In this document: piece after piece, positions 1,284-43,161 of the stretch
Layout of the letters: every line of letters begins with the position of its first letter
How positions within the stretch are numbered: the first letter of the stretch is position 1
Source: an uncultured Candidatus Saccharibacteria bacterium
GTDB taxonomy: Bacteria > Patescibacteriota > Minisyncoccia > Phycocordibacterales > GWA1-40-21
Length of the DNA: 43,161 bases
Assembly (NCBI GenBank): GCA_964613715.1
Contig: CAZTJK010000005.1
Span: 1-43,161, forward strand
Direction of reading: 5' to 3'
Notes under the pieces: generated by a model
Databases searched by the model: none
Seen by the model: the letters and a program-made list of their open reading frames with translations, nothing else
Told to the model about the DNA's origin: nothing
Program-made: the position numbers and the translations under genes

Positions 1284-2054
1284 TTATTTGGATAATTCCA
1301 GGGAAACAGGGCAATGGTCGCTGCCCATGACTGAATCGAGAATATCGGCTTTTTTGACTTTTGCCTTCAAGTCGCCAGATACGAAGAAATAGTCGATTCT
1401 CCAGCCGATATTACGGTCCCGGGCATAGGTTTTCATGTCCCACCAGCTATAACGCTCGGTTTCATGCGCATGAAACAAGCGAAAGGTATCAATATAGCCC
1501 TTGGCAATGACTGCATCGATCCAAGCGCGTTCGATATCGAGAAATCCGGAAGTATTTTTATTTTCCTTCGGGTGCGCAAGATCAATTTCAGTATGGGCAG
1601 TATTCACATCGCCGCAAAAAACAACTTTGTGGCCTTTTTTCTGCAATTTCTCGATGAATTTCAGAAATTCCTCATAATAATGCATCTTGTACTTGAGGCG
1701 TTCCGGCCCGCCGCCGCCATTCGGAAAATAAACATTTAGAAGCACGAAATCCTTGAAATAGAGGATAAGGGTTCGGCCTTCGTCATCGAATTTCTTGATG
1801 CCAAGGCCGTATTCTACCTTTTCAGGCTTGATTTTCGTGAAGACAGCGACGCCGCTATAGCCTTTTTTTATTTTTGAATGATCGAAATACGAGAAATAGC
1901 CGGCAGGGGAACGCAGTTCTTCCGGCAGCTGTTCGGGATGTGCTTTGGTTTCCTGGAGACATAGGATATCCGGATCGAGGTCGAAAACAGCATTGAAAGC
2001 CCCTTTCTTGTAGACGGCGCGGATACCGTTGACGTTCCATGAAAGTAATTTCAT
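1284..2054 (-). CDS. xth: Exodeoxyribonuclease III (AP endonuclease)
   Basis: LSWNVNGIRA, LQETK, GDVNTAH, WRIDY, SDHCP motifs. Confidence 0.97.
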   Translation of the reverse strand: MKLLSWNVNGIRAVYKKGAFNAVFDLDPDILCLQETKAHPEQLPEELRSPAGYFSYFDHSKIKKGYSGVAVFTKIKPEKVEYGLGIKKFDDEGRTLILYFKDFVLLNVYFPNGGGGPERLKYKMHYYEEFLKFIEKLQKKGHKVVFCGDVNTAHTEIDLAHPKENKNTSGFLDIERAWIDAVIAKGYIDTFRLFHAHETERYSWWDMKTYARDRNIGWRIDYFFVSGDLKAKVKKADILDSVMGSDHCPVSLELSK

Positions 2055-2059
2055 ATCGA

Positions 2060-2090
2060 CGAGTATAGCACGACCAATATGCTATACTCG
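2060..2090. promoter_or_regulatory. Back-to-back divergent extended -10 promoters forming a perfect 11-bp inverted repeat
   Basis: CGAGTATAGCA-N9-TGCTATACTCG; each half is TGcTATACT; the minus copy lies 7 nt before the xth ATG. Confidence 0.7.
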
Positions 2091-2105
2091 GCTCATAGCA
2101 ACTTT

Positions 2106-2459
2106 ATGAAAACATTCATGAAATATAGTATTGCATCCCTCATGCTCGCCGGTGCACCATCCCTGGCACTTGCTCAGCGGTACATGATGTACAGTCCTGG
2201 CAGCTATGATAACTATTCGATCGGCTGGTTTCCGATGATACTGTTTGCCATCCTGCCGATTCTTTGGATCGGATTTTGCATCCTCATGTTCGTATTCTGG
2301 CTTTGCATACTCATCGATGCAATCAAGCATGCGCCGGAAAAGATGAAGCTCATCTGGGTAGTCGTTATCATATTTACGAATATCATCGGCGCGCTAATCT
2401 ATTATTTCGTAGAAAAGCGTCCGCGCAAGGTAAAAACGACAGAACGAAAAGAGGCCTAG
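2106..2459 (+). CDS. Small membrane protein with PLDc N-terminal-like (PLD_N) helical hairpin
   Basis: Signal-like N-terminus, then FVFWLCILIDAIK...KLIWVVVIIFTNIIGALIYYFV, the typical PLDc_N pattern; start uncertain (2106 or 2118). Confidence 0.7.
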   Translation: MKTFMKYSIASLMLAGAPSLALAQRYMMYSPGSYDNYSIGWFPMILFAILPILWIGFCILMFVFWLCILIDAIKHAPEKMKLIWVVVIIFTNIIGALIYYFVEKRPRKVKTTERKEA

Positions 2460-2475
2460 AATAAGAACTTCATGC

Positions 2476-2510
2476 AAAAGGGCGGGTTCGCGAAGCGAAC
2501 CCGCCCTTTT
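2476..2510. terminator. Bidirectional intrinsic terminator
   Basis: AAAAGGGCGGGTTCGC-GAA-GCGAACCCGCCCTTTT, 16-bp perfect stem between convergent genes. Confidence 0.9.
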
Positions 2511-2525
2511 GGTATGCCAGGCTAA

Positions 2526-3458
2526 TTATTTCCTGTTTTTGCCATGAAAATTCTTGTGAATGTCCCGCAAATGCTTATCGGTAACATGCGTATAGATCTG
2601 TGTCGTCGTGATATTGGCATGGCCGAGTATTGTCTGCACACTGCGCAGATCTGCCCCGTTTGACAAGAGATCGGTTGCAAATGCATGCCGAATGACATGC
2701 GGGGTTACCTTTTTCGAGATGCCGGCAATGGTTGCATAGCGTTTGACGATCCGTTCCACTGAACGGCGAGTCAGCCCTGCTGTAGTATCAGTAGAGCCGC
2801 GCGTTTCACCGCCGACCGGCACGAACAGGGCTTCGGACATATCCTTTCTGATTTTGAGATAATCGCCAACGGCGCGCTTGGCATCATCGGACAGGAATAC
2901 CACGCGGACTTTGCCACCCTTACCGCGAATGGAGAATTCGTCCGCATGGAGATCAAGGTCATTCGTAAGCGAACAAAGCTCGGAAACACGCAGGCCGGTT
3001 GAAAAGAGAAGCTCGAGTATCGCTTTGCCGCGGGCTTTCTTTTCCGGATCGGTTTCTGTATCAGGCGCTTTCAATAGGCGAGACAGTTCGGCCGGACTGA
3101 TAGTATCGATGATGCGCTCGCCGACTTTTGCAAGCTCGATATTGTCTGCTGGCAGCGAGCTGATGCCCCGACGTGCCAGGAATTTCAAGAATGTGCGTAG
3201 AGCGATGAGATAGTAGTTTTGGGTTTTCTTTTTCATGGTCTCGCCGGTCGCGCGGTTATTGCCTGCCGATTGGCGATTGAGCCACATGCGAAAATCGCGG
3301 ACAGCGTCATTGGTGATGTCTTCCGGCTTTTGCAATTTGGTCTGGCTCAAAAAAACAGATAGGTAATGGTCGTAATTTTCTATCGTGCGCAGTGCCCGGC
3401 CTTTTTCAATCTCGATATATTCAAGGAATTCGCGCTTCAGATCAGGGAGGGTTTTCAT
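2526..3458 (-). CDS. XerC/XerD-like tyrosine recombinase
   Basis: Catalytic set present: TGLRVSEL (R), GKGGK (K), HVIRH (HxxR), LGH, TTQIYT (Y); SAM-like N-domain; start MKTLPD supported by TGgTAGAAT 7 nt upstream. Confidence 0.93.
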   Translation of the reverse strand: MKTLPDLKREFLEYIEIEKGRALRTIENYDHYLSVFLSQTKLQKPEDITNDAVRDFRMWLNRQSAGNNRATGETMKKKTQNYYLIALRTFLKFLARRGISSLPADNIELAKVGERIIDTISPAELSRLLKAPDTETDPEKKARGKAILELLFSTGLRVSELCSLTNDLDLHADEFSIRGKGGKVRVVFLSDDAKRAVGDYLKIRKDMSEALFVPVGGETRGSTDTTAGLTRRSVERIVKRYATIAGISKKVTPHVIRHAFATDLLSNGADLRSVQTILGHANITTTQIYTHVTDKHLRDIHKNFHGKNRK

Positions 3459-12264: not shown

Positions 12265-12401
12265 CTTATGCTTCGGGCCAACTATTGGTTTTTTCTCTAA
12301 AATAAGCCTATTTTCTTAAGGGAATTCTATCGGTTCTGTATTTATATGGCTCTGTTGAGCCATATAATAATCTGACAGCCTGGCGTTCAGGACAAATATT
12401 A

Positions 12402-12429
12402 ATGATACTATCTGCCGGCCCTCCGTCAA
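12402..12429 (-). promoter_or_regulatory. Sigma70-type promoter for LysM-M23 gene
   Basis: TTGACG-16 nt-TATCAT, about 130 nt upstream of the ORF start. Confidence 0.55.
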
Positions 12430-12457
12430 CAGGCTTATCAACATGCAATTGAAAAAG

Positions 12458-12489
12458 AAAAGACCTATCGCAACTCTGCGATAGGTCTT
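12458..12489 (-). terminator. Terminator of the 12501-13538 gene
   Basis: 13-bp stem AAGACCTATCGCA/TGCGATAGGTCTT followed by U-tract on minus. Confidence 0.85.
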
Positions 12490-12500
12490 AAAACCTCCTT

Positions 12501-13538
12501 TTATAGTGCCTGGGAAGGCAGTTTCATGCCGGCTTTCTCGAATGCCCGCTCGATGACAGCCTGCGGATTGTCGAAAAAGAACGTGGCTGAGCCGGAAAAC
12601 GACCGCGCATCGTCTGCTATCGACTTCCTGTCTATCAAGATAGTATCACCCTGAAAGCTGAAGTACGCCCAGCGATGCTCGCTTGAATGCTTCCAGGGAT
12701 AGACTTCGTCCCCAGCGCAATCGATTGCCAAGTCATCACTGCTCTCGAGGCGCTTCTGATGCATGACAAGCATGACTGCTATCTCGAATGCTCCGAGACC
12801 GAATTCTCCTTTCCCTTGATTCCGGAGCGCTCTGTCAATGGATTCTCCGCCATGCAACTTGCCGAATTGTGCGGGGAATATCAAAATACCGGCATCCTTC
12901 TGTTTTACGATAAGCTCAAGCATCGCGGCCTCTTTCAGCCGGCTTTCCCGCAAGTGCTGGAAACCGGGCCCCAGCTGACGCATACGCGAGAAGAACTTAG
13001 CTATGCGCGAGGGAGGCTGTTGACTCTGTTCCTCGCTCATATACTCGCTCTCCCGAAACATGCCGCCGCGGACCCGCTTGAGAACCGCGAAGGCAGCTTC
13101 AGCAGCAGTATCATATCTGTCGCCAAATATCGCCGGGTATTTGCGCCAATTCGGAACTGCGAACCAGCCTTCTGCGCCAGCCGGCATTTTCGAAAGGCCT
13201 TGCAGCACCCATGAATAGAGCTCGGGATTCGGATCTTCGATGCCTGGAAAAAATTCCTTGAGCACTTTGATCTGGCTCGCCAGACTCACCGGAGTCTGAT
13301 ATCTCGTGTATCCGTATTCCGGCACGACTTCGCGCCTCGAATCCGAAAGCTCATATGCTGTATCCGAGGCGGCTTTCAGTATCGCCGCTTCGAATTTCGC
13401 GCAACCTTTCAAAAGCGCGGTTGCATTATGCTTGGTATACCGGCTTGCCTTCTCGGCCATCATTTCGGCAAGGCGATTGCCAATGCGAAGGCACATCGCT
13501 CGGATATCCTTTTCCTGCGACTGCGTCATCAGATCCAT
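12501..13538 (-). CDS. Hypothetical protein, Parcubacteria family with QFGxxHxG.S...EFGLG.F...IDCAGDE C-domain
   Basis: 345-aa ORF; AGGGGG SD before ATG 13538; TTGACA-16-TAGCAT promoter at ~13575-13602; own terminator. Confidence 0.75.
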   Translation of the reverse strand: MDLMTQSQEKDIRAMCLRIGNRLAEMMAEKASRYTKHNATALLKGCAKFEAAILKAASDTAYELSDSRREVVPEYGYTRYQTPVSLASQIKVLKEFFPGIEDPNPELYSWVLQGLSKMPAGAEGWFAVPNWRKYPAIFGDRYDTAAEAAFAVLKRVRGGMFRESEYMSEEQSQQPPSRIAKFFSRMRQLGPGFQHLRESRLKEAAMLELIVKQKDAGILIFPAQFGKLHGGESIDRALRNQGKGEFGLGAFEIAVMLVMHQKRLESSDDLAIDCAGDEVYPWKHSSEHRWAYFSFQGDTILIDRKSIADDARSFSGSATFFFDNPQAVIERAFEKAGMKLPSQAL

Positions 13539-31721: not shown

Positions 31722-32468
31722 TTATTTTGCTGCAATGGCTGACGCATGCCGCTTGACGTAGATTTCCTGGCCGATAGCGAAGAGGCTCGAGGTGATGAGA
31801 TAGAGCGATACGACGGCAGGGAAGCTGCGTCCGATAAAGAAAATGACGACCGGCATGAAATATTTCATCTGCATGCTCATGCTGCGGGAAAGCTCGTCGC
31901 CGAATGTCGGCGCCGCGCCGGGCGCCAAGGATTTTTTCGGCTGTTTTGGCATGATGACCTGCATCTGGAAAAATTGCGCGATCGCGGCGCCGAGCGCGAA
32001 TATAATGCTTTTCCCAGCAACACTTGCACCGAACAAGGTGATGTTGATCACGTCCGGTATGCGGGTAAATGAGTAGAGGGCAGTGTGATCGAGATTTGGC
32101 AATCCGCTCTTTGAAAAGATCATATAGAGCGCCAAGAGCACCGGAAGCTGGATGAACATGACGAGGATTCCGGCAAATGGATTGATGCCGCGCTCGCGAT
32201 AGAGCTCCATGGTCTTTTCTGCCTGCAGTTGCTTATTGTCCTTATAGGCAGATTTTAAGGCATTGAGCTCCGGCTCGAGGCGCTTCATCTCGAATTGCGT
32301 CCTGACCGCCTTCTGAGACAGGGGGAAGAGAAGTATCTTGATGATGAGGGTAAAGAGTATGACAGCAACCCCGACATTGTGGAATGGGATGATGCTGATA
32401 AAAAAGATAAGGCCGTTGTAGAGCGGCGCATAGAAAAAGGTAGTAAAGATATAGTGCATACCCCTCAT
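31722..32468 (-). CDS. yidC: Membrane insertase YidC/Oxa1 (short form, no periplasmic domain)
   Basis: GVAVILFTLIIKILLFPL, MELYRERGINPF, IQLPVLLALY, LYLITSSLF; start may be 32459. Confidence 0.95.
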   Translation of the reverse strand: MRGMHYIFTTFFYAPLYNGLIFFISIIPFHNVGVAVILFTLIIKILLFPLSQKAVRTQFEMKRLEPELNALKSAYKDNKQLQAEKTMELYRERGINPFAGILVMFIQLPVLLALYMIFSKSGLPNLDHTALYSFTRIPDVINITLFGASVAGKSIIFALGAAIAQFFQMQVIMPKQPKKSLAPGAAPTFGDELSRSMSMQMKYFMPVVIFFIGRSFPAVVSLYLITSSLFAIGQEIYVKRHASAIAAK

Positions 32469-32497
32469 TCTATACGAAAAACGACGACTGTACAGCG

Positions 32498-32848
32498 CTA
32501 TTTTTTCTTCAAAAACCCAATAGTTTCAAGGATATTTCTGATATTTTCTTCAAGGAGACGATAGGAGGCCGATGGTTCCTGCGGTTGGGCGAAAAAGACA
32601 ATGGTAAAGGAGGGCTGGGATGCCTCTAAAGAAGTATATTTTTCAATAGCGGCACTCATCTGCCGCTTGAGCCGGTGCCTGCCAACCGATGTTTTTTGAG
32701 CTTTTTTTGATACTACAACAGCAAAATGGGAGTGTGGGGAGCTCGCGGAAGCATATTTTGCATAGACAAGCCGGCCCGGCGCGGTCCTGCCGTTTTTGAT
32801 TGTGCTCGTGATATCGATTCGCGATGCTCGGTACTCTTTTTTCAGCAT
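32498..32848 (-). CDS. rnpA: RNase P protein component
   Basis: FAVVVSKK...VGRHRLKRQM (RNR-motif variant); position between rpmH and yidC. Confidence 0.88.
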   Translation of the reverse strand: MLKKEYRASRIDITSTIKNGRTAPGRLVYAKYASASSPHSHFAVVVSKKAQKTSVGRHRLKRQMSAAIEKYTSLEASQPSFTIVFFAQPQEPSASYRLLEENIRNILETIGFLKKK

Positions 32849-32911
32849 GGTTTCGTATAGTATACCCTGGAAACAAACAAAATATCCGCTTGCGGCGGAT
32901 ATAGTGGGGAT

Positions 32912-33046
32912 TTAGACGGTGAGCTTGGCGCGGCCCTTCTGTCGTCTGCGCTTGATGGTATTTCTGCCATATTTGCTCGAGCTGCGGACCAAAAATCCGT
33001 GCGTTTTCGCTCGTTTCCGCTTATTCGGCTTGTATGTGAATGACAT
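32912..33046 (-). CDS. rpmH: 50S ribosomal protein L34
   Basis: [21 protein letters not shown]...RRQKGRAKL (44 aa). Confidence 0.97.
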
Positions 33047-33146
33047 GCGGAGAGCATACATCAGAAACAAAAAAATGTAAAGTTCTTTTGCTCGGCATTT
33101 CCGGCATAATGAGAGGGTATCGGCGCATGAAATATTCCTTTGTTTC

Positions 33147-33178
33147 TTATCCACTTTTTGTGCACAGATTGTGAACAA
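33147..33178. promoter_or_regulatory. DnaA-box cluster upstream of dnaA
   Basis: TTATCCACT (33147-55), TTGTGCACA (33158-66), TGTGAACAA (33170-78), each one mismatch from TTWTNCACA. Confidence 0.7.
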
Positions 33179-33224
33179 AAAAATTCATTCGCGCCCGAAC
33201 ATCAGCATACTATAATTGAGCGAC

Positions 33225-34559
33225 ATGGTTGAACATAAAACATTGTGGAATAACGTCCTCTCGCAGATCGAGCTTGCTATCTCGAAAGCGAATTTCGGCA
33301 TGTGGTTCAAAGACACCCATATTACCAAGCAGGAAGACGGCGTAGTCTTCGTGGGCGTGCCAAATATCTTCGTGAAAGACTGGCTGTCGAACAAATATCA
33401 CAAGGATATCATGAAGCAGCTGCGCACCTTTGGAGAAAATATCCGCAATGTCGAATACGTGGTGGCGAAAATCGAGGCGAAAGCACCGGTGAAAGAGGCA
33501 CCAGTAAATGTAAACGAATTGCCGCTCGCCGATTTCTATGTCAACAAGGAGGACAATCTTAATCCACGCTATACGTTCAAGACATTCGTTGTCGGACCGT
33601 TCAACGAGCTCGCGCATGCGGCTTCCCAGGCGATCCTGAAGCGCACCGCAACCTATAATCCGCTCTTTATTTTCGGTTCCACCGGCCATGGCAAGACACA
33701 TCTGATCCAAGCGCTTGGCAATCAGGTCAAGGAAGACGATCCGTCGAAAAAGATCTATTATATGACCTCGGAGCGCTTTGCGAACGACTATCTCAACTCG
33801 CTCAACAGCGGCGAAATCAATATTTTCAAGGAAAAATACAAGAAATACGATGTTTTGATCATTGATGATATCCAGTTCCTTTCCGCAAAGACGAAGACGC
33901 AGGAGGAATTCTTTCATCTGTTCAATAGTTTCCATGATGTCGGCAAGCAGCTTATCTTTTCTTCGGACAAGCACCCGAATTTCATCGCCGATCTCGAAGA
34001 GCGTATCAAATCCCGCTTCAATGCGGGCATGATTCTCGAGATCCAAAAGCCTGATTTCGAATCCCGCATCCAGATTTTCAGGAAAAAAGCCCTCTTGATG
34101 AACCTGGCGCTCTCCGATGAGATGGTGGAATTCCTCGCATCGTCCGTCGAAGGGAATATTCGCGAGCTTGAGGGAATCCTCAACCTCATTCTCTGCCAAT
34201 CCCAACTGAAAAATAGGGAATTGAATATCAATGAGATCAAAGACTTGATCAAGAACACCTCGAAGCCGAAAAAGAGTCTGTCAGTGAAGGATGTGACGCG
34301 TGTTGTATCAGAGTTTTACGGCATTGAAGAATCAAGTATCTTTGAGAAGGGCCGTAAAAAGGAAGTGATTCTGCCCCGACAGGTTATTATGTACCTTCTT
34401 CGGGAGGATTTTGGCATCTCATTTCCGTCGATCGGGGATAAGGTAGGTAATAGGGATCATTCAACGGTTATTCACTCCTACGAGAAGATTAAAAATGACT
34501 TGAAAAGTAATTCAGAACTCACCCAGGAAATAAGCCACATACGCTCGATGTTGAAATGA
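33225..34559 (+). CDS. dnaA: Chromosomal replication initiator DnaA
   Basis: LNPRYTF..FVVG..N, YNPLFIFG.TGHGKTHL, LIIDDIQFL, EEFFHLFN, NIRELEG, RDHSTVIH; ATG 33225 is 8 nt after TATAAT. Confidence 0.98.
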   Translation: MVEHKTLWNNVLSQIELAISKANFGMWFKDTHITKQEDGVVFVGVPNIFVKDWLSNKYHKDIMKQLRTFGENIRNVEYVVAKIEAKAPVKEAPVNVNELPLADFYVNKEDNLNPRYTFKTFVVGPFNELAHAASQAILKRTATYNPLFIFGSTGHGKTHLIQALGNQVKEDDPSKKIYYMTSERFANDYLNSLNSGEINIFKEKYKKYDVLIIDDIQFLSAKTKTQEEFFHLFNSFHDVGKQLIFSSDKHPNFIADLEERIKSRFNAGMILEIQKPDFESRIQIFRKKALLMNLALSDEMVEFLASSVEGNIRELEGILNLILCQSQLKNRELNINEIKDLIKNTSKPKKSLSVKDVTRVVSEFYGIEESSIFEKGRKKEVILPRQVIMYLLREDFGISFPSIGDKVGNRDHSTVIHSYEKIKNDLKSNSELTQEISHIRSMLK

Positions 34560-34748
34560 TTGTGGAAAAGCTTGGGAAAAGATATGGAGAAAATTATACA
34601 CAATATGTTGAAACTGTATGGATAAAAATGAAACGATGTATTGTAGACATATTGTCCAGTCAGAAAAAGCTTTGAAATTGAAAAATAAACAGGAATAATA
34701 AGAATAAAAATAGATTCACATATCAACAAGGATAATAAAAATATTAGT
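34560..34748. other. Probable oriC (dnaA-dnaN intergenic)
   Basis: Perfect boxes TGTGGAAAA (34561-69) and TTATACACA (34594-602), near-match TATGGATAA (34617-25), followed by a very A-rich tract (AATAATAAGAATAAAAATAG). Confidence 0.8.
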
Positions 34749-35849
34749 ATGAAAATAGAGTGTGTAAAAGAAAAACTCCATATCGCCGTATCAAATGCTG
34801 AAAAGATTGTGACTAAGAACAACACTCTTCCAGTACTATCCTGTATTTTGTTTGAAGCAAAAAACAATACCCTTACTATCCAATCAACAAACATAGACCT
34901 TGGTTTTGAGGTATCCATCCCAGTAAAGATGAAGGAACAAGGAAAAGTAGCAGTTCCAGCCCATATCATCGGTTCTTTTTTAAACACTATTACCGATGAT
35001 GAAAGTATCAATCTCGAAACCAATGAACAGACCCTCCATATATCGACAAAAAATCACAAAGCGACCATAAAAACCATCTCATATGATGATTTTCCAACTA
35101 TACCAACGATCGATGGTGGCGCTACATTCACACTTTCAGCCCAGGATATGCGCAATGGCATCAAATCAGTGCTGTATAGTGCCGCAGTTTCTTCAGTAAA
35201 ACCTGAATTGGCAAGCGTCTACCTGTATTCGAATGAAGAGTCGATTATTTTCGTCGCAACAGACTCTTTCCGTCTTGCCGAGAAGCGCATACAAACAAAG
35301 AAACCGCTGAAAATAAGCGGCATTCTCATTCCATTCAAGAATGCGACGGATATCCTGAAAATCATAGATTCAGTCGCCGGAGATATCACGATTCATACAA
35401 CAAAAAACCAGATATCATTCGTATTCGCCGAAACATACCTCGTTTCCCGCGTGATCGACGGCACATTTCCCGACTACAAACAGATTCTCCCGAAGGAGGA
35501 GAAAACGAAAGTAACTATCCTGAAGCAGGATCTTCTCAGTACACTCAAGATATCGAACATTTTTTCCGACAGTTTCAACCAGATGAATATTGCAGCGATG
35601 CCCGGAGCAAAGACCATCGAGGTGAAGACAAAAAATGCCAATGTGGGCGAGAGCACCAATACGATCAGTGCTCGCGTTGAGGGGGAGACAATCGCCGTCA
35701 ATTTTAACTACCGCTACATTACCGACTCCTTGCAATCCATCGCTTCCGATAGCATCACCCTTTCATTCAATGGCACGACGAAGCCCCTGGTGATTCGCGG
35801 TAGCGCGGACTCAAGCTTTACCTACCTGGTCATGCCGATGAACCGATAA
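34749..35849 (+). CDS. dnaN: DNA polymerase III beta sliding clamp
   Basis: TLPVLSCIL, STNIDLG, ATDSFRLAE, IDGTFPDY, FNYRYI, YLVMPMN. Confidence 0.97.
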   Translation: MKIECVKEKLHIAVSNAEKIVTKNNTLPVLSCILFEAKNNTLTIQSTNIDLGFEVSIPVKMKEQGKVAVPAHIIGSFLNTITDDESINLETNEQTLHISTKNHKATIKTISYDDFPTIPTIDGGATFTLSAQDMRNGIKSVLYSAAVSSVKPELASVYLYSNEESIIFVATDSFRLAEKRIQTKKPLKISGILIPFKNATDILKIIDSVAGDITIHTTKNQISFVFAETYLVSRVIDGTFPDYKQILPKEEKTKVTILKQDLLSTLKISNIFSDSFNQMNIAAMPGAKTIEVKTKNANVGESTNTISARVEGETIAVNFNYRYITDSLQSIASDSITLSFNGTTKPLVIRGSADSSFTYLVMPMNR

Positions 35850-39922: not shown

Positions 39923-40399
39923 ATGCGCATCATCGCCATCGATCCCGGCTATGAGCGCATGGGCGTCGCCATACTTGAGAAAACCGGCGCGAAAGAATCG
40001 CTGATTTTTTCTGAATGCTTCAAAACATCTCCGAAGCTTGCGCATGCAGAGCGGCTGCGCCTTGTCGGCGAGGAAATCACCAGGCTCATTCGTGAGTATG
40101 AGGCGGAGGAAATGGCCATCGAGACACTTTTCTTTGAGAAGAATCAAAAGACTGCGATGAAAGTCTCCGAATCCCGCGGTGTCATGCTGTTTGCTGCGGC
40201 GTCCGCCGGCATACCGGTCGCGGAATTCACCCCGATGCAGATAAAGGTCGCCGTGACCGGCTACGGCAAAAGCGACAAAAGCCAAGTGACAGAGATGGTC
40301 AAGCGGCTCATTCGTATTGATCGGGCCATTCAATATGATGATGAATATGATGCTATCGCCATTGGCCTGACCTGCTTTGCGACGAAAAAATCCGCCTGA
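39923..40399 (+). CDS. ruvC: Holliday junction resolvase RuvC
   Basis: IIAIDPG, AIETLFF, ESRGV, IKVAVTGYGKSDK.QV, DDEYDAIAI. Confidence 0.95.
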   Translation: MRIIAIDPGYERMGVAILEKTGAKESLIFSECFKTSPKLAHAERLRLVGEEITRLIREYEAEEMAIETLFFEKNQKTAMKVSESRGVMLFAAASAGIPVAEFTPMQIKVAVTGYGKSDKSQVTEMVKRLIRIDRAIQYDDEYDAIAIGLTCFATKKSA

Positions 40400-40410
40400 A
40401 GCGGATTTTT
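40386..40410. terminator. Bidirectional terminator overlapping the ruvC stop
   Basis: AAAAATCCGC-CTGAA-GCGGATTTTT. Confidence 0.75.
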
Positions 40411-40413
40411 CTT

Positions 40414-40665
40414 TTAATATTCGTCTGAAGACATGCGGTAATCATCGAGCTCGTCCTCCTCTTCAAGGGACGGGTCATCCTCCGTGCCTTCCCCGGTATT
40501 TTCCTCGAATGCATCGAGCACACCGTCAGATATTACGCCGCCTTCTTTCGTCTCTTCTTCCTCTTCGCCTTCCTGCGGCGCTGCTGCCGGCGTTTCCTCG
40601 ACCTTCTTGTTCTTTTTTTCGTCCTTGGGACTTGGCTTTGCTTTCGGTTTTGGCATAACGCTCAT
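40414..40665 (-). CDS. Small low-complexity protein: Lys/Pro-rich N-terminus, highly acidic C-terminus
   Basis: MSVMPKPKAKPSPKDEKK...EEEDELDDYRMSSDEY; start 40665 or 40656. Confidence 0.65.
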   Translation of the reverse strand: MSVMPKPKAKPSPKDEKKNKKVEETPAAAPQEGEEEEETKEGGVISDGVLDAFEENTGEGTEDDPSLEEEDELDDYRMSSDEY

Positions 40666-40717
40666 ATTTTCCAAAATTGTATGAAAATTGCAAATAGTGG
40701 GGATTGTGGATAACGCC

Positions 40718-41248
40718 TTACTCGGCGTTCGTATAGATATCCTGCACCTCCTCGTTGTTTTCGAGATCATTGATAAGCTTTTCGAGGACGGGTGCATCAG
40801 CATCGCTTACGGCAACCATTGTCTTTGGCATCCAGCCTTCGGCTGTTTTCTCGAATGCCCAGGATGCAGAGCCGGAGCTTGCAAGCGATGTACCGTTGTC
40901 CGACAGGATATGCTTGATCTCAGCCGCAGCCTTGTTTTTATTCGCAGTCAGCGCTTCAATGATGAGCGCCACGCCGCCCGGACCGTACGCTTCGTACGTG
41001 ATCTCGTACATTTCCTCGCCGCCTGCGCCCGTCGCTTTCTTGATCGCGCGGTCGATATTGTCGGCAGGCATGCTCGCTTCTTTTGCCTGTTCTATTGCTG
41101 CGCGCAGTCCCGGAGAGGAGAGATTGCCGTTCGCTTTCTTTGCCTCGATCTGGAGCATCTTTGCCAAGCGGCCGAATATCTTGCTCTTTTCAGCATCCGT
41201 TTTTGCTTTCAACCGCTTTATTTTCGAGAATTTATTATGTCCTGACAT
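40718..41248 (-). CDS. yebC: YebC/PmpR family protein, internally shortened (176 aa)
   Basis: MSGHNKFSKIKR, SMPADNIDRAIKKA, YEAYGPGGVALII..LT.N, EVQDIYTNA. Confidence 0.93.
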   Translation of the reverse strand: MSGHNKFSKIKRLKAKTDAEKSKIFGRLAKMLQIEAKKANGNLSSPGLRAAIEQAKEASMPADNIDRAIKKATGAGGEEMYEITYEAYGPGGVALIIEALTANKNKAAAEIKHILSDNGTSLASSGSASWAFEKTAEGWMPKTMVAVSDADAPVLEKLINDLENNEEVQDIYTNAE

Positions 41249-41289
41249 GGGAGGGAATATATCACTATAAGATAAAAAATAAAAGCTTC

Positions 41290-41643
41290 TTAACCTAGAT
41301 GCACATATATTTTTTGTTGTCTTATTTTTGAAGCTTCAGCTAATCCTTGTGCAATTTCTTTCAAATGTAGACGGATCATTTCATTAGGTATATGCATCGT
41401 GGCGTAACCAGCTTGATGAGAGTAATACCCTCGATTCAAGTCAGCCACAATCTGATGTGGATTAGTAAGGTGTTGGATTCCATCCACTTCAATATTTAAT
41501 TTTGCTTTTGGAATTGTTAGATCAATACGTTTATGACCGTCATTTAGCTCAACAAGGACTCGTACACCAAGGCGTTCGAGAGCTTCTTTCAATGCTTTCG
41601 CCTCTATTGTTGGTGAACGAAAATAATGAATTAAATTTATCAT
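41290..41643 (-). CDS. DUF559/Vsr-like PD-(D/E)XK endonuclease-domain protein
   Basis: GHKRIDLTIPKAKLNIEVDGIQH motif; visibly AT-richer than its neighbours. Confidence 0.65.
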   Translation of the reverse strand: MINLIHYFRSPTIEAKALKEALERLGVRVLVELNDGHKRIDLTIPKAKLNIEVDGIQHLTNPHQIVADLNRGYYSHQAGYATMHIPNEMIRLHLKEIAQGLAEASKIRQQKIYVHLG

Positions 41644-41648
41644 TCTTT

Positions 41649-42689
41649 CTAGAGCAATTTCCCCGGATTCTTGATATTCAAATGCTTTCGCGCCCGGTCG
41701 GTCACCACGCGGCCGCGCGATGTACGCTCGATGAAGCCAAGCTGGAGCAGATACGGCTCGTACACATCTTCAATCGTCGCTTGTTCTTCCGAAAGGGAGG
41801 CAGCCATGGTATTCAGGCCGACCGGTCCGCCTGAGAATTTATCCTCAATCATGGAAAGAAGCGCCCGGTCCTCGGCATTGAGCCCCGCTTCGTCAATATT
41901 GAGCATGGCAAGCGCTTCATCTACCACCGCTTTCGTGAGCGGCTGCTTCTTAATTTGCGCAAGGTCGCGTGCGCGCTTCAGGAGATAGTTCGCCGTGCGC
42001 GGTGTAAAGCGGCTGCGTTTGGCGATTTCTTTCTTTGCCGCCGCATCTATGTCGATGCCGAGTATCTTTGCCGACCGCTCGATGATTTTTTCTATTTCTT
42101 CATTCGTATAAAACTCAAGTTTGAATACGCCACCTGAAAAACGGCTGCGCAGCGGGGCGGAGAGCATCGCTACACGTGTCGTTGCCGCGATGAGGGTGAA
42201 GGGCGGCAGGTCAAGCTGTATCGTGCGCGCTGATGGGCCTTTGCCAATAATGATGTCGAGCGACCCGGATTCCATAGCAGGGTAGAGCACCTCTTCGATC
42301 GTCTTGTTCAGGCGATGGATCTCATCGATGAACAAAATGTCGCCGGGAGAGAGGTTTGTGAGGATCGATGCAAGGTCGCCGACTTTCTCGATGGCCGGGC
42401 CGGAGGTTGATTTCAATTGCGCACGGGTTTCTTTGGCAATCAGGTTTGCAAGCGTCGTCTTGCCGAGGCCGGGCGGGCCGTAAAAGAGAAGATGCTCCGG
42501 CGGATGCTTGCGCTCCTCGGCAGCTTTCAGGAGGATATGGAGGTTTTCTTTGATATTTTTTTGGCCGATATATTCATTCCAGGATGACGGCCTGAGGGTC
42601 TGGTCGAGGAATTTCGTGTCGCCGTTTTTATGGCTCAAATCTTTGCTATTTTCTGGAGAGGAAGTATCGGAAGTGTTTTTTCTTGACAT
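41649..42689 (-). CDS. ruvB: Holliday junction branch-migration helicase RuvB
   Basis: LRPSSWNEYIGQ, YGPPGLGKTT, LFIDEIHRL, YPAMES, SRFTPR.AN.LL.R, IE...EPYL.Q.G...RT.RGR; start 42689 (alternative 42716). Confidence 0.97.
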   Translation of the reverse strand: MSRKNTSDTSSPENSKDLSHKNGDTKFLDQTLRPSSWNEYIGQKNIKENLHILLKAAEERKHPPEHLLFYGPPGLGKTTLANLIAKETRAQLKSTSGPAIEKVGDLASILTNLSPGDILFIDEIHRLNKTIEEVLYPAMESGSLDIIIGKGPSARTIQLDLPPFTLIAATTRVAMLSAPLRSRFSGGVFKLEFYTNEEIEKIIERSAKILGIDIDAAAKKEIAKRSRFTPRTANYLLKRARDLAQIKKQPLTKAVVDEALAMLNIDEAGLNAEDRALLSMIEDKFSGGPVGLNTMAASLSEEQATIEDVYEPYLLQLGFIERTSRGRVVTDRARKHLNIKNPGKLL

Positions 42690-42710
42690 ACCATTAATAT
42701 ATGCTACACT
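42683..42710 (+). promoter_or_regulatory. Near-consensus sigma70 promoter pointing away from ruvB
   Basis: TTGACA (42683-88)-16 nt-TGcTACACT (42702-10); no plus-strand gene downstream. Confidence 0.65.
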
Positions 42711-42716
42711 GCTCAC

Positions 42717-43013
42717 AGAGCCTTCGCAGGGGCTTTTTATTTCACCCTCTTCGTTTGATTGTCAGTTCTGAATATAAATCTCTAAACAATTACGCTCGCA
42801 AGAGTGTACGAGTTTCTTTTCAAGGACATCTTGGTTTATTTCTTCGGAAATACTGCTGAGGTTATCCTTAAAAATTAATTTAACTTTTCACCGCCAGGTT
42901 TAAAGTATTGCTTAGAGATTTATGTTTTGAACGACGTCCGTCGGACGCTTCAAACATGTATCTCTTCTGGTATGGTAGCTCGGCCTGCAGGTTTTGCAAG
43001 GCCTTTTTATTTT
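42717..43013 (+). ncRNA. Candidate stand-alone structured noncoding RNA (~295 nt), unassigned
   Basis: Promoter upstream; 14/15-bp long-range helix 42774-88/42909-23; GCAA tetraloop hairpin 42791-808; cUUCGg hairpin 42837-52 within 42822-69 stem; hairpin 42922-57; terminator 42982-43013. Confidence 0.6.
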
Positions 43014-43022
43014 AGGACACAC

Positions 43023-43160
43023 TTAGTCTTCGCTCGCAAGGTCTATCACTTTCGCGAGTTCGTCGAGCGTGCTCACCCCGCGAAGTACTTTCAGTACTCC
43101 ATCCTGCCGCATGTCAAGAATATTCTGCGATAGTGCGGCTTTTTTAATATCGCGATCGCT
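43023..43160 (-). CDS. C-terminus of a PilB/GspE-type secretion/type IV pilus ATPase (truncated by window edge; not in ORF track)
   Basis: Minus frame reads SDRDIKKAALSQNILDMRQDGVLKVLRGVSTLDELAKVIDLASED*, the typical M..DG..KV..G.T...E...V end of PilB/GspE. Confidence 0.8.
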   Translation of the reverse strand, partial: SDRDIKKAALSQNILDMRQDGVLKVLRGVSTLDELAKVIDLASED

Positions 43161-43161
43161 C

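Follow-up and report, generated by a model that had tools for sequence, protein, structure and literature searches.

What occupies the 336 bp between ruvB and its neighbor on a contig from an uncultured Candidatus Saccharibacteria bacterium (GenBank assembly GCA_964613715.1, contig CAZTJK010000005.1, positions 1 to 43,161)? The window, by which we mean this whole stretch of 43,161 nucleotides (nt), carries both flanking genes on its minus strand, ruvB starting at ATG 42689 and the next gene stopping at 43023-43025, and a reading of the letters alone (hereafter the original prediction) had placed between them, on the opposite strand, an orphan RNA of about 295 nt named RNA B. All the features that the original prediction listed are present where it placed them. 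Our answer is that a free-standing gene occupies 42683-43013 on the plus strand, encoding a structured, non-coding small RNA whose family is apparently new. We are highly confident that the RNA gene is genuine, has its own transcription and represents a new family, and as far as sampled the family is confined to one Parcubacteria/Paceibacteria clade (NCBI name Minisyncoccia).

Since the window folds beyond its dinucleotide shuffles equally well on both strands (z = -5.4 plus, -5.3 minus), so that stability alone does not give the strand, and since the promoter match is by itself not significant (one found against 1.0 expected in the window), the window taken alone settles nothing and homologues were needed. 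A ruvB-anchored search, with one genome per species, returned 80 loci, in which the element was located upstream of ruvB by nhmmer and then by covariance model; a degenerate DNA pattern built from the conserved parts matched at least 120 contigs of a metagenome collection, and many of the loci come from Hainich groundwater samples; among the sources of L081-L200 are Hainich aquifer wells (H41/H43) and JGI groundwater and lake samples. Two covariance models, R1 and R2, were used for searching the window and the loci. The unbiased set consists of 24 ruvB-anchored sequences; the larger alignment, A4, holds 92 clean plus-strand model matches, and the model structure comprises 56 pairs in eight helices.

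The core of the element lies directly upstream of ruvB in all 23 ruvB-anchored loci with a RuvB sharing 62% identity or more with that of the window, loci labeled Parcubacteria, Paceibacteria, Kaiserbacteria, Minisyncoccia or, loosely, 'Saccharibacteria', and the remaining 57 of the 80, which belong to other classes of the candidate phyla radiation and to ordinary phyla, have no element. Among the matches listed, at least 118 further metagenome contigs carry it, and distinct examples of the RNA number more than 130. Among the same listed matches, ruvB occupies the same divergent position in 109 of 120 loci, the others being too short (six), merely read on the other strand (three) or false matches of the pattern (two, L104 and L181). 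Weak matches of the second model, placed and oriented alike, extend to more distant genomes (L034, E = 0.0026; L035, 0.047; L033, 0.1). In the loci searched, the element was found nowhere but upstream of ruvB, its orientation relative to ruvB is constant, and R1 and R2 detect one copy in the window. A phage or mobile origin was rejected, viral contigs giving no match to the DNA pattern, and so was the coding of a small protein, there being no conserved plus-strand open reading frame (ORF) and a median of three codons for the longest ATG ORF in the core. Full-text searching of the literature found no description of such an RNA. In L028, from a more distant Parcubacteria genome, pilB also lies upstream of ruvB, about 1.3 kb apart, with no match to the RNA model in between; this region (1671-3001) might hold a very divergent or a different element.

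The conserved element is a closing helix around three arms, laid out in the window as follows.

42765-42932, plus strand: the conserved unit, closing helix P1 around the arms P2, long P3 and P4, forming a four-way junction
42765-42790, plus strand: 5' strand of P1 (core 42773-42790, outer extension 42765-42772)
42907-42932, plus strand: 3' strand of P1 (core 42907-42924, extension to 42932)
42791-42808, plus strand: P2, a 7-bp hairpin with a GCAA cap, 7 of 7 pairs covarying
42810-42881, plus strand: P3, the long arm, four helices (helices 3-6), all covarying
42810-42820 with 42871-42881, plus strand: outer pairs of P3
42822-42826 with 42865-42869, plus strand: AAGGA/UCCUU of P3, followed by a conserved internal loop, C / UA
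42828-42835 with 42855-42862, plus strand: G-U-rich helix of P3
42837-42852, plus strand: tip of P3 with a UUCG cap
42883-42906, plus strand: P4, a hairpin with base ACUUU...AAAGU and variable top, nine pairs, all with compensatory changes (helices 7-8)

The original prediction had drawn the closing helix with 14 of 15 bp; the helix is there and is longer, with 18 covarying pairs (42773-42790 with 42907-42924), 16 of them showing compensatory changes and 96.9% of cells paired in A4, and it can be extended to 42765/42932. Across homologues the uninterrupted pairs of P1 number 11-31, with a median of 19, or about 27 when two mismatches are allowed, and at L008, L015 and L022 its sequences are entirely different yet complementary. 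This covariation is already visible when the 24 unbiased sequences are aligned with MAFFT. The GCAA-capped 7-bp stem and the UUCG-capped stem atop a G-U-rich helix, both anticipated, are present and covary as well. Over the whole structure, 89.1% of A4 cells are paired, compared with 73.3% when the 3' partners are shuffled; 49 of the 56 pairs have changes on both sides, and compensatory changes, for which the original prediction had proposed to look, occur in all eight helices of the 92 sequences. Covariation scores 0.470; shuffles give 0.188, and partners slid by 1-3 columns give 0.07-0.11; none of 500 shuffles reaches any of five A4 measures, and the slid controls are 4-6 times lower. When 112 homologues were folded singly and independently, all gave the terminal closing helix, and a closing helix with exactly three branches appeared in 85 of the 112, compared with 11 of 114 shuffles.

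The linkers at the junction are 0-1 nt long and not conserved, from which an almost perfect four-helix junction follows. The conserved nucleotides lie within helices, the loops and linkers being variable: they comprise the junction-proximal part of P1 (CUCUAAGCAAU / AUUGCUUAGAG), AGGAC...UAUCCU with its small C/UA internal loop, and the base of P4. Almost no variation is seen in AGGA/UCCU and in the G-C pair at columns 90/123, and next to them stand side-by-side wobbles, U-G in 75 of 92 sequences (columns 88/125) and G-U in 77 of 92 (columns 89/124). The loops of P2 in homologues are often UUCG, CUUG or GCAA.

On which strand is this structure an RNA? Read on the plus strand, A4 holds 672 G-U cells and 146 A-C cells; read on the minus strand, only 78.6% of the pairs are canonical instead of 89.1%, the conserved G-U pairs turning into A-C mismatches. 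UNCG tetraloops number 30 on the plus strand and 1 on the minus, CUUG tetraloops 11 and 0. In 59 of 136 homologues (43%) there is a U-run no more than 28 nt past P1, compared with an A-run before P1 in 14 of 136, and separate hairpin terminators occur within 200 nt in 71 of 135 on the plus strand and 40 of 135 on the minus. The covariance model, which was built in the plus orientation, scores that strand 45-90 bits higher; the reverse strand is also scored, because P1 is near-palindromic. The G-U and A-C counts, the tetraloops, the U-tracts and the promoter described next all agree and thus place the RNA on the plus strand, opposite to ruvB and pilB, as the original prediction had it. The features of transcription, with those of the window that flank the core, are these.

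42683-42688, plus strand: -35 hexamer TTGACA, its last bases together with T42689 being the reverse complement of the ruvB start codon
42700-42710, plus strand: extended -10, namely TATG (TRTG motif), C and TACACT (the -10, 42705-42710), after a 16-nt spacer
42717, plus strand: predicted transcription start, about 7 nt past the -10, placed by promoter geometry
42718-42743, plus strand: 5' leader hairpin (42718-42736) with a U-run to 42743, lineage-specific and outside the core
42922-42957, plus strand: 3' hairpin, specific to this genome and overlapping the outer extension of P1
42982-43013, plus strand: terminator-like hairpin (42982-43003) with a U-tract (43004-43013), ending 10 nt before the stop of the convergent gene

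The near-consensus promoter that the original prediction had seen overlapping the start of ruvB gains its significance from being conserved across homologous loci: TTGACA, 16-18 nt and TAnnnT lie upstream on the plus strand in 109 of 120 loci among the matches listed, the spacer being 17 nt in most homologues and 16 nt in the window. At positions not imposed by the search, the family logo reads T19 (92%), R20 (94%), T21 (100%), G22 (99%) and C23 (85%), followed by TAnnnT; a TRTG extended -10 is a known feature of Gram-positive promoters. Elsewhere in the window, on the minus strand at 1252-1281, a promoter-like site similar to the promoter of RNA B (TTGACATGGATCTATTCTGCATGCTATAAA) matches the extended -10 pattern with one mismatch, its last base being A instead of T, just upstream of the ORF at 690-1196.

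What surrounds the core varies. The core closed by P1 measures 131-166 nt, about 160-300 nt with leader and tail, and the predicted start lies 12-194 nt from P1 across loci. The 5' hairpin and its U-run, present at 42718-42743 as predicted, are no defining part of the RNA, for they occur in 16 of 134 homologues, all close relatives (L001, L002, L003 and L160 have them in common), and the idea of a conserved attenuator was rejected, the hairpin being found in 12% of homologues. The further 3' hairpin and the terminator with its U-tract are likewise real features of the window and yet cannot be aligned with L127 and L160, in spite of near-identical cores. A conformational switch had also been proposed, in which AGAGAU would choose between two partners; a third, complementary copy is present in the 3' tail of 9 of 136 homologues, compared with 3 in the control, and this claim is not supported. 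As neither the flanking hairpins nor the switch are conserved, they belong to lineage-specific flanks outside the conserved element. The RNA gene of about 295 nt is thus supported as a gene, its length being particular to this genome: the functional unit is the core alone, about 155-170 nt long, and not the whole 295-nt transcript.

Other lineages end their RNAs differently. In a subfamily that includes L012, L016, L017, L098, L106, L114, L122, L123, L128, L133 and others, the outer part of P1 ends in ...AUUAAUGC and is immediately followed by UUUUUU, and there the closing helix of a 110-nt domain seems to double as the stem of an intrinsic terminator, an unusual geometry. Between the 3' end of the RNA and the pilB stop, a motif of the form (GT)CAATTGAC(A) recurs in L004, L005, L006, L007, L019, L021, L112 and L121; in L006 and L019 it includes a perfect 10-bp palindrome, GTCAATTGAC, which puts TTGAC on both strands, and in some loci a CAATTGAC-type motif is followed by a bidirectional terminator. 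The window lacks this motif, which might serve as an operator or a shared -35. The palindrome beyond the RNA had suggested that a ruvB 5' untranslated region (UTR) might be antisense to the RNA, an idea largely dropped as ruvB fits a leaderless pattern, to which we now turn.

41649-42689, minus strand: ruvB, 346 aa from ATG 42689, with Pfam domains RuvB_N, AAA_lid_4 and RuvB_C
42696-42701, minus strand: TATATT, resembling a -10 and 6 nt ahead of the ruvB ATG, within the spacer of the RNA promoter; probable leaderless promoter of ruvB
43023-43161, minus strand: 3' end of the convergent gene, 45 codons and the stop; a GspE/PilB-type ATPase by homology of position

The ATG of ruvB (42689-42687, minus strand) falls in the -35 of the RNA. 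Of 105 testable loci, 95 have a T after TTGACA that completes a CAT, the in-frame ATG of a ruvB frame of at least 300 codons, and in 90 of those 95 no other upstream start codon is available; it is this -35 box, read as the first two codons, that makes RuvB of this clade begin with Met-Ser. This arrangement of promoter and start codon is conserved over about 130 species-level genomes. No Shine-Dalgarno sequence precedes ruvB in the window. A TAnnnT box stands 5-8 nt before the start codon in 10 of 32 window genes, several of them TG-extended, compared with 4.7% of all ATGs (P about 1e-6), which suggests that leaderless mRNAs are common in this organism; starts with such a box (often TGnTAnnnT) and without a Shine-Dalgarno sequence include those at 2054, 5349, 13633, 25561, 38653, 38720, 41248 and 42689, among others. 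The mRNA of ruvB is probably leaderless too. If so, the two promoters would interleave in the order RNA -35, ruvB -10, RNA -10, ruvB -35, and could not be occupied jointly.

On the far side, the 45-aa fragment has no Pfam match, and in 7 of 8 sampled loci the gene in the same position is full-length and has GspE/PilB Walker motifs, its stop lying 20-130 nt from the 3' end of P1 and 10-130 nt from the 3' end of the RNA. The relation to ruvA also sets the clade apart: nearly all loci without the RNA have ruvA immediately ahead of ruvB, which is not so in RNA-bearing genomes, and in the RNA-bearing contigs L088 and L101 it lies about 10 kb away, so that the ruvAB operon is split in this clade. 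Within the 43-kb window ruvA is absent. As ruvA is present in L088 and L101, the notion of the RNA as a replacement for RuvA was rejected. At 39923-42689 the window has RuvC, YebC/TACO1, a DUF559 endonuclease-like gene and RuvB clustered (compare loci L023, L030, L088 and L101).

Does the RNA belong to any known family? Rfam 15 at its gathering threshold gives no match at the RNA over the whole window, and at E up to 10 the segments 42500-43161 and 42712-43015 of the window and 2680-2960 of L012 return chance matches only (snoRNAs, K10_TLS), none of them to the models of 6S RNA, signal recognition particle (SRP) RNA, RNase P RNA or transfer-messenger RNA (tmRNA). The original prediction had noted the lack of tmRNA, RNase P and SRP motifs and had asked whether the RNA might be a known family such as 6S; it was correct on the former, and no known family, 6S included, emerged. 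An SRP (4.5S) RNA was further rejected because ffh and ffs are both reported to be undetectable in Parcubacteria (Nelson & Stegen, 2015; PMC4508563). L005, which is C7867-002, a genome from that study, carries the RNA described here. RNase P RNA and tmRNA were rejected also because ARAGORN finds no tmRNA in the window and the core is far too small.

Large, structured orphan RNAs of unknown function, such as the raiA motif RNA, OLE, ROOL and GOLLD, have been found in bacteria by comparative genomics. The present RNA resembles them in being defined by covariation, in having its own promoter and terminator, in being restricted to a lineage and yet widespread there, and in that the placing of its conserved nucleotides, within helices and internal loops, points to a protein partner or to a tertiary fold. 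It differs from them in sequence and architecture, with no Rfam match, is smaller than OLE, ROOL and GOLLD, has Parcubacteria as hosts, and is locked to one gene, ruvB, through the overlap of promoter and start codon. That overlap is itself akin to overlapping divergent promoters and promoter occlusion, the opposed core elements interdigitating within about 40 bp such that one RNA polymerase at a time would be accommodated; unlike the usual back-to-back promoters, one partner here is the near-consensus promoter of a non-coding RNA whose -35 also encodes Met-Ser, and the other serves a probable leaderless mRNA. A purely antisense role would leave the conserved interior unexplained. As to cis-antisense pairing, a leaderless ruvB mRNA would not overlap it, an overlap with a pilB 3' UTR or read-through being possible, and instead of kissing loops or exposed single strands it has loops and linkers that are its least conserved parts, many of them closed by UNCG, GNRA or CUUG tetraloops.

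What, then, might the RNA do? Given conservation that is bound to helices, variable loops and linkers, and no gene following on the same strand, a trans-acting, protein-binding RNA is the most likely reading, and a base-pairing small RNA or a riboswitch is unlikely. We give about an even chance to the fuller proposal, in which such an RNA is made from a promoter that competes with that of the leaderless ruvB. A near-consensus sigma-70-type promoter (TTGACA, 16-17 nt, TRTGnTAnnnT) would fire away from ruvB; the transcript would fold into a near-perfect four-way junction in which P1 and the long P3 hold the conserved nucleotides and P2 and P4 fill the short arms; and termination would occur at a U-tract right after P1 or, as in the window, at a separate downstream terminator, leader and tail being evolutionarily free. 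An abundant trans-acting RNA of this kind could act as a scaffold or decoy, with a fixed helical surface on which a protein partner would dock. The interleaved promoters would be mutually exclusive on one DNA molecule, in which case a strong RNA promoter would set or limit the transcription of ruvB.

Several points weigh against this proposal or temper the evidence beneath it. The transcript, its ends and its abundance are all deduced from sequence; no conserved neighboring gene for an RNA-binding protein was seen; and the strict linkage to ruvB could mean a function in cis rather than in trans. The -10 of ruvB is not clearly conserved beyond the bases that TRTG explains, T19 and A20 being conserved and the last T of the hexamer occurring in 50%. 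As to the alignment, A4 was fitted to the model structure, which favors pairing, a bias offset by the 24-sequence MAFFT alignment and the independent single-sequence folds, and the conservation of P1 and YYATCCT in A4 is inflated, both having been required by the metagenome pattern.

Might the act of transcription outweigh its product, the promoter occluding or competing with that of ruvB, or opposing pilB read-through head-on, or both, and the RNA serving as a terminator or insulator? This would account for a ruvB start codon held in the -35 in 95 of 105 loci despite a variable RuvB N-terminus, for the interleaved promoters and the invariable synteny, for P1 and its U-run acting as a terminator in 43% of homologues with the pilB stop 20-130 nt from the 3' end of P1, and for the split of ruvAB seen only in RNA-bearing genomes. 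For such ends, however, a hairpin would suffice, and the 110-nt interior with its three covarying arms, AGGAC/UAUCCU and G-U wobbles would be unneeded, although that interior has been maintained over a divergence of RuvB down to about 57-62% identity; we therefore find this explanation unlikely, if worth keeping in mind. Somewhat more doubtful is a divergent 6S-like RNA, with P1 as the closing stem that mimics downstream DNA, P3 as the upstream stem and the P2/P4 region as the 'bubble', which would sequester the sigma-70 RNA polymerase holoenzyme; the enzyme could then escape by making a short product RNA templated on the conserved 5' strand of P1. The length is that of 6S RNAs (about 150-200 nt with paired 5' and 3' ends), core and tail coming to about 160-200 nt; the RNA is rod-like, with ends paired in a long closing stem and a long opposite stem, two probably coaxial arms totaling about 50 bp; it is a stand-alone gene with a very strong housekeeping promoter, as is typical of stable RNAs; its most conserved sequence, at the junction side of P1, is where 6S RNA is copied into product RNA; and no report of 6S RNA in these bacteria was found in the literature. 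The families of 6S (RF00013 and 6S-like) nonetheless show no covariance-model similarity to it, with no match at E up to 10 for two divergent members, and where 6S has a large single-stranded bubble between two long irregular stems this RNA has two covarying hairpins joined by linkers of 0-1 nt, P2 often being capped by UUCG, GCAA or CUUG, which indicates selection for closure rather than for mimicry of an open promoter. P1, moreover, is paired almost throughout, whereas the closing stems of 6S RNAs typically have bulges. Of the known RNAs, 6S is the closest functional parallel, but we do not class this RNA as 6S.

The same junction could be taken for an orphan riboswitch, the aptamer for a ligand or signal that would choose between stopping after P1 and antisense read-through into pilB. 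A multi-helix junction closed by P1, conserved internal-loop nucleotides and a terminator directly after, with the convergent pilB 20-130 nt downstream, have precedents in riboswitch-controlled antisense RNAs, namely the B12 riboswitch and AspocR in Listeria and the S-box antisense RNA in Clostridium acetobutylicum, in which a junction domain is likewise followed by a terminator and aimed into a convergent gene. Those RNAs, unlike this one, do not have a very long P1 with conserved junction-proximal sequence; with some of the best-conserved sequence of the RNA beside the junction, this P1 of 19-27 bp (median 19 contiguous) is the very reverse of a short, switchable, competing one. There is no conserved alternative fold or junction core, the element lies in no 5' UTR (both in the window and in 7 of 8 sampled loci a convergent gene of pilB type comes next), and no riboswitch aptamer model matched, so that this reading is improbable. 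More improbable still is the thought that a four-way junction sitting atop the ruvB start codon titrates or regulates the Holliday-junction machinery, RuvAB(C), as a decoy. It is based on that location, on the separation of ruvA from ruvB and on geometry, P1 and P3 being long, opposite and about 25 bp each and the other two arms short, which is the geometry on which RuvA and two RuvB rings assemble; if true, it would tie recombination to the activity of one strong promoter. A functional minus strand, as a structured 3' UTR of pilB or 5' UTR of ruvB, would suit the orientation of both flanking genes, a window fold nearly as good on that strand and a reverse strand that the covariance model also scores, but it conflicts with the loss of canonical pairs, the G-U pairs turned into A-C, the tetraloop counts, the conserved promoter and U-tracts on the plus strand and the model scores there, and with a ruvB that looks leaderless; we regard it as very improbable indeed. 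Finally, an element acting as DNA, whether the inverted repeats of a miniature inverted-repeat transposable element (MITE), an invertible segment or a protein operator, would explain conserved inverted repeats of 15-19 bp flanking about 115 bp. Neither the dispersed copies nor the two orientations of such elements were found, the single copy having a fixed locus and orientation; the repeats change by compensatory substitution, G-U included, the interior has covarying helices of its own and viral contigs give no match, which leaves this explanation next to no probability.

A few observations in the window are unrelated to RNA B. The AT-rich intergenic region at 1-689 folds beyond shuffles on both strands (z about -7.0), with no Rfam match at gathering and only chance matches at E up to 1, and may be the other RNA of the original prediction, 'RNA A', or another RNA still; paralogy between RNA A and RNA B was rejected, R1 and R2 detecting the single copy of the latter. 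A second intergenic region, 12265-12500, has z = -4.3 on the plus and -5.6 on the minus strand, and a weak, sub-threshold match to the ribosomal protein L10 leader (minus strand, 12447-12530) scores 27.3 bits, the gathering threshold being 44 (E = 0.01). At 31725-35846, yidC on the minus strand is followed by a gap of about 750 bp, in which there is an unannotated 116-codon frame (32498-32848, minus strand), and by dnaA and dnaN on the plus strand. The cumulative GC-skew minimum is at about 30-31 kb, near yidC and dnaA; replication probably starts within 31725-35846, some 10 kb away from the gene of the RNA.

In groundwater and sediments, few uncultured bacteria are as abundant as Parcubacteria, whose genomes are tiny and lack standard components such as the SRP (PMC4508563), and whose regulatory RNAs are almost unexplored. 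A lineage-wide RNA without likeness to any curated family is therefore a concrete target in the search for a new RNA-protein complex or a 6S analogue, and its covariance model provides a new annotation marker for this clade. A -35 box that also provides the start codon of ruvB, itself probably leaderless, constitutes, in addition, an unusually clean and conserved case of promoter DNA shared between two genes.

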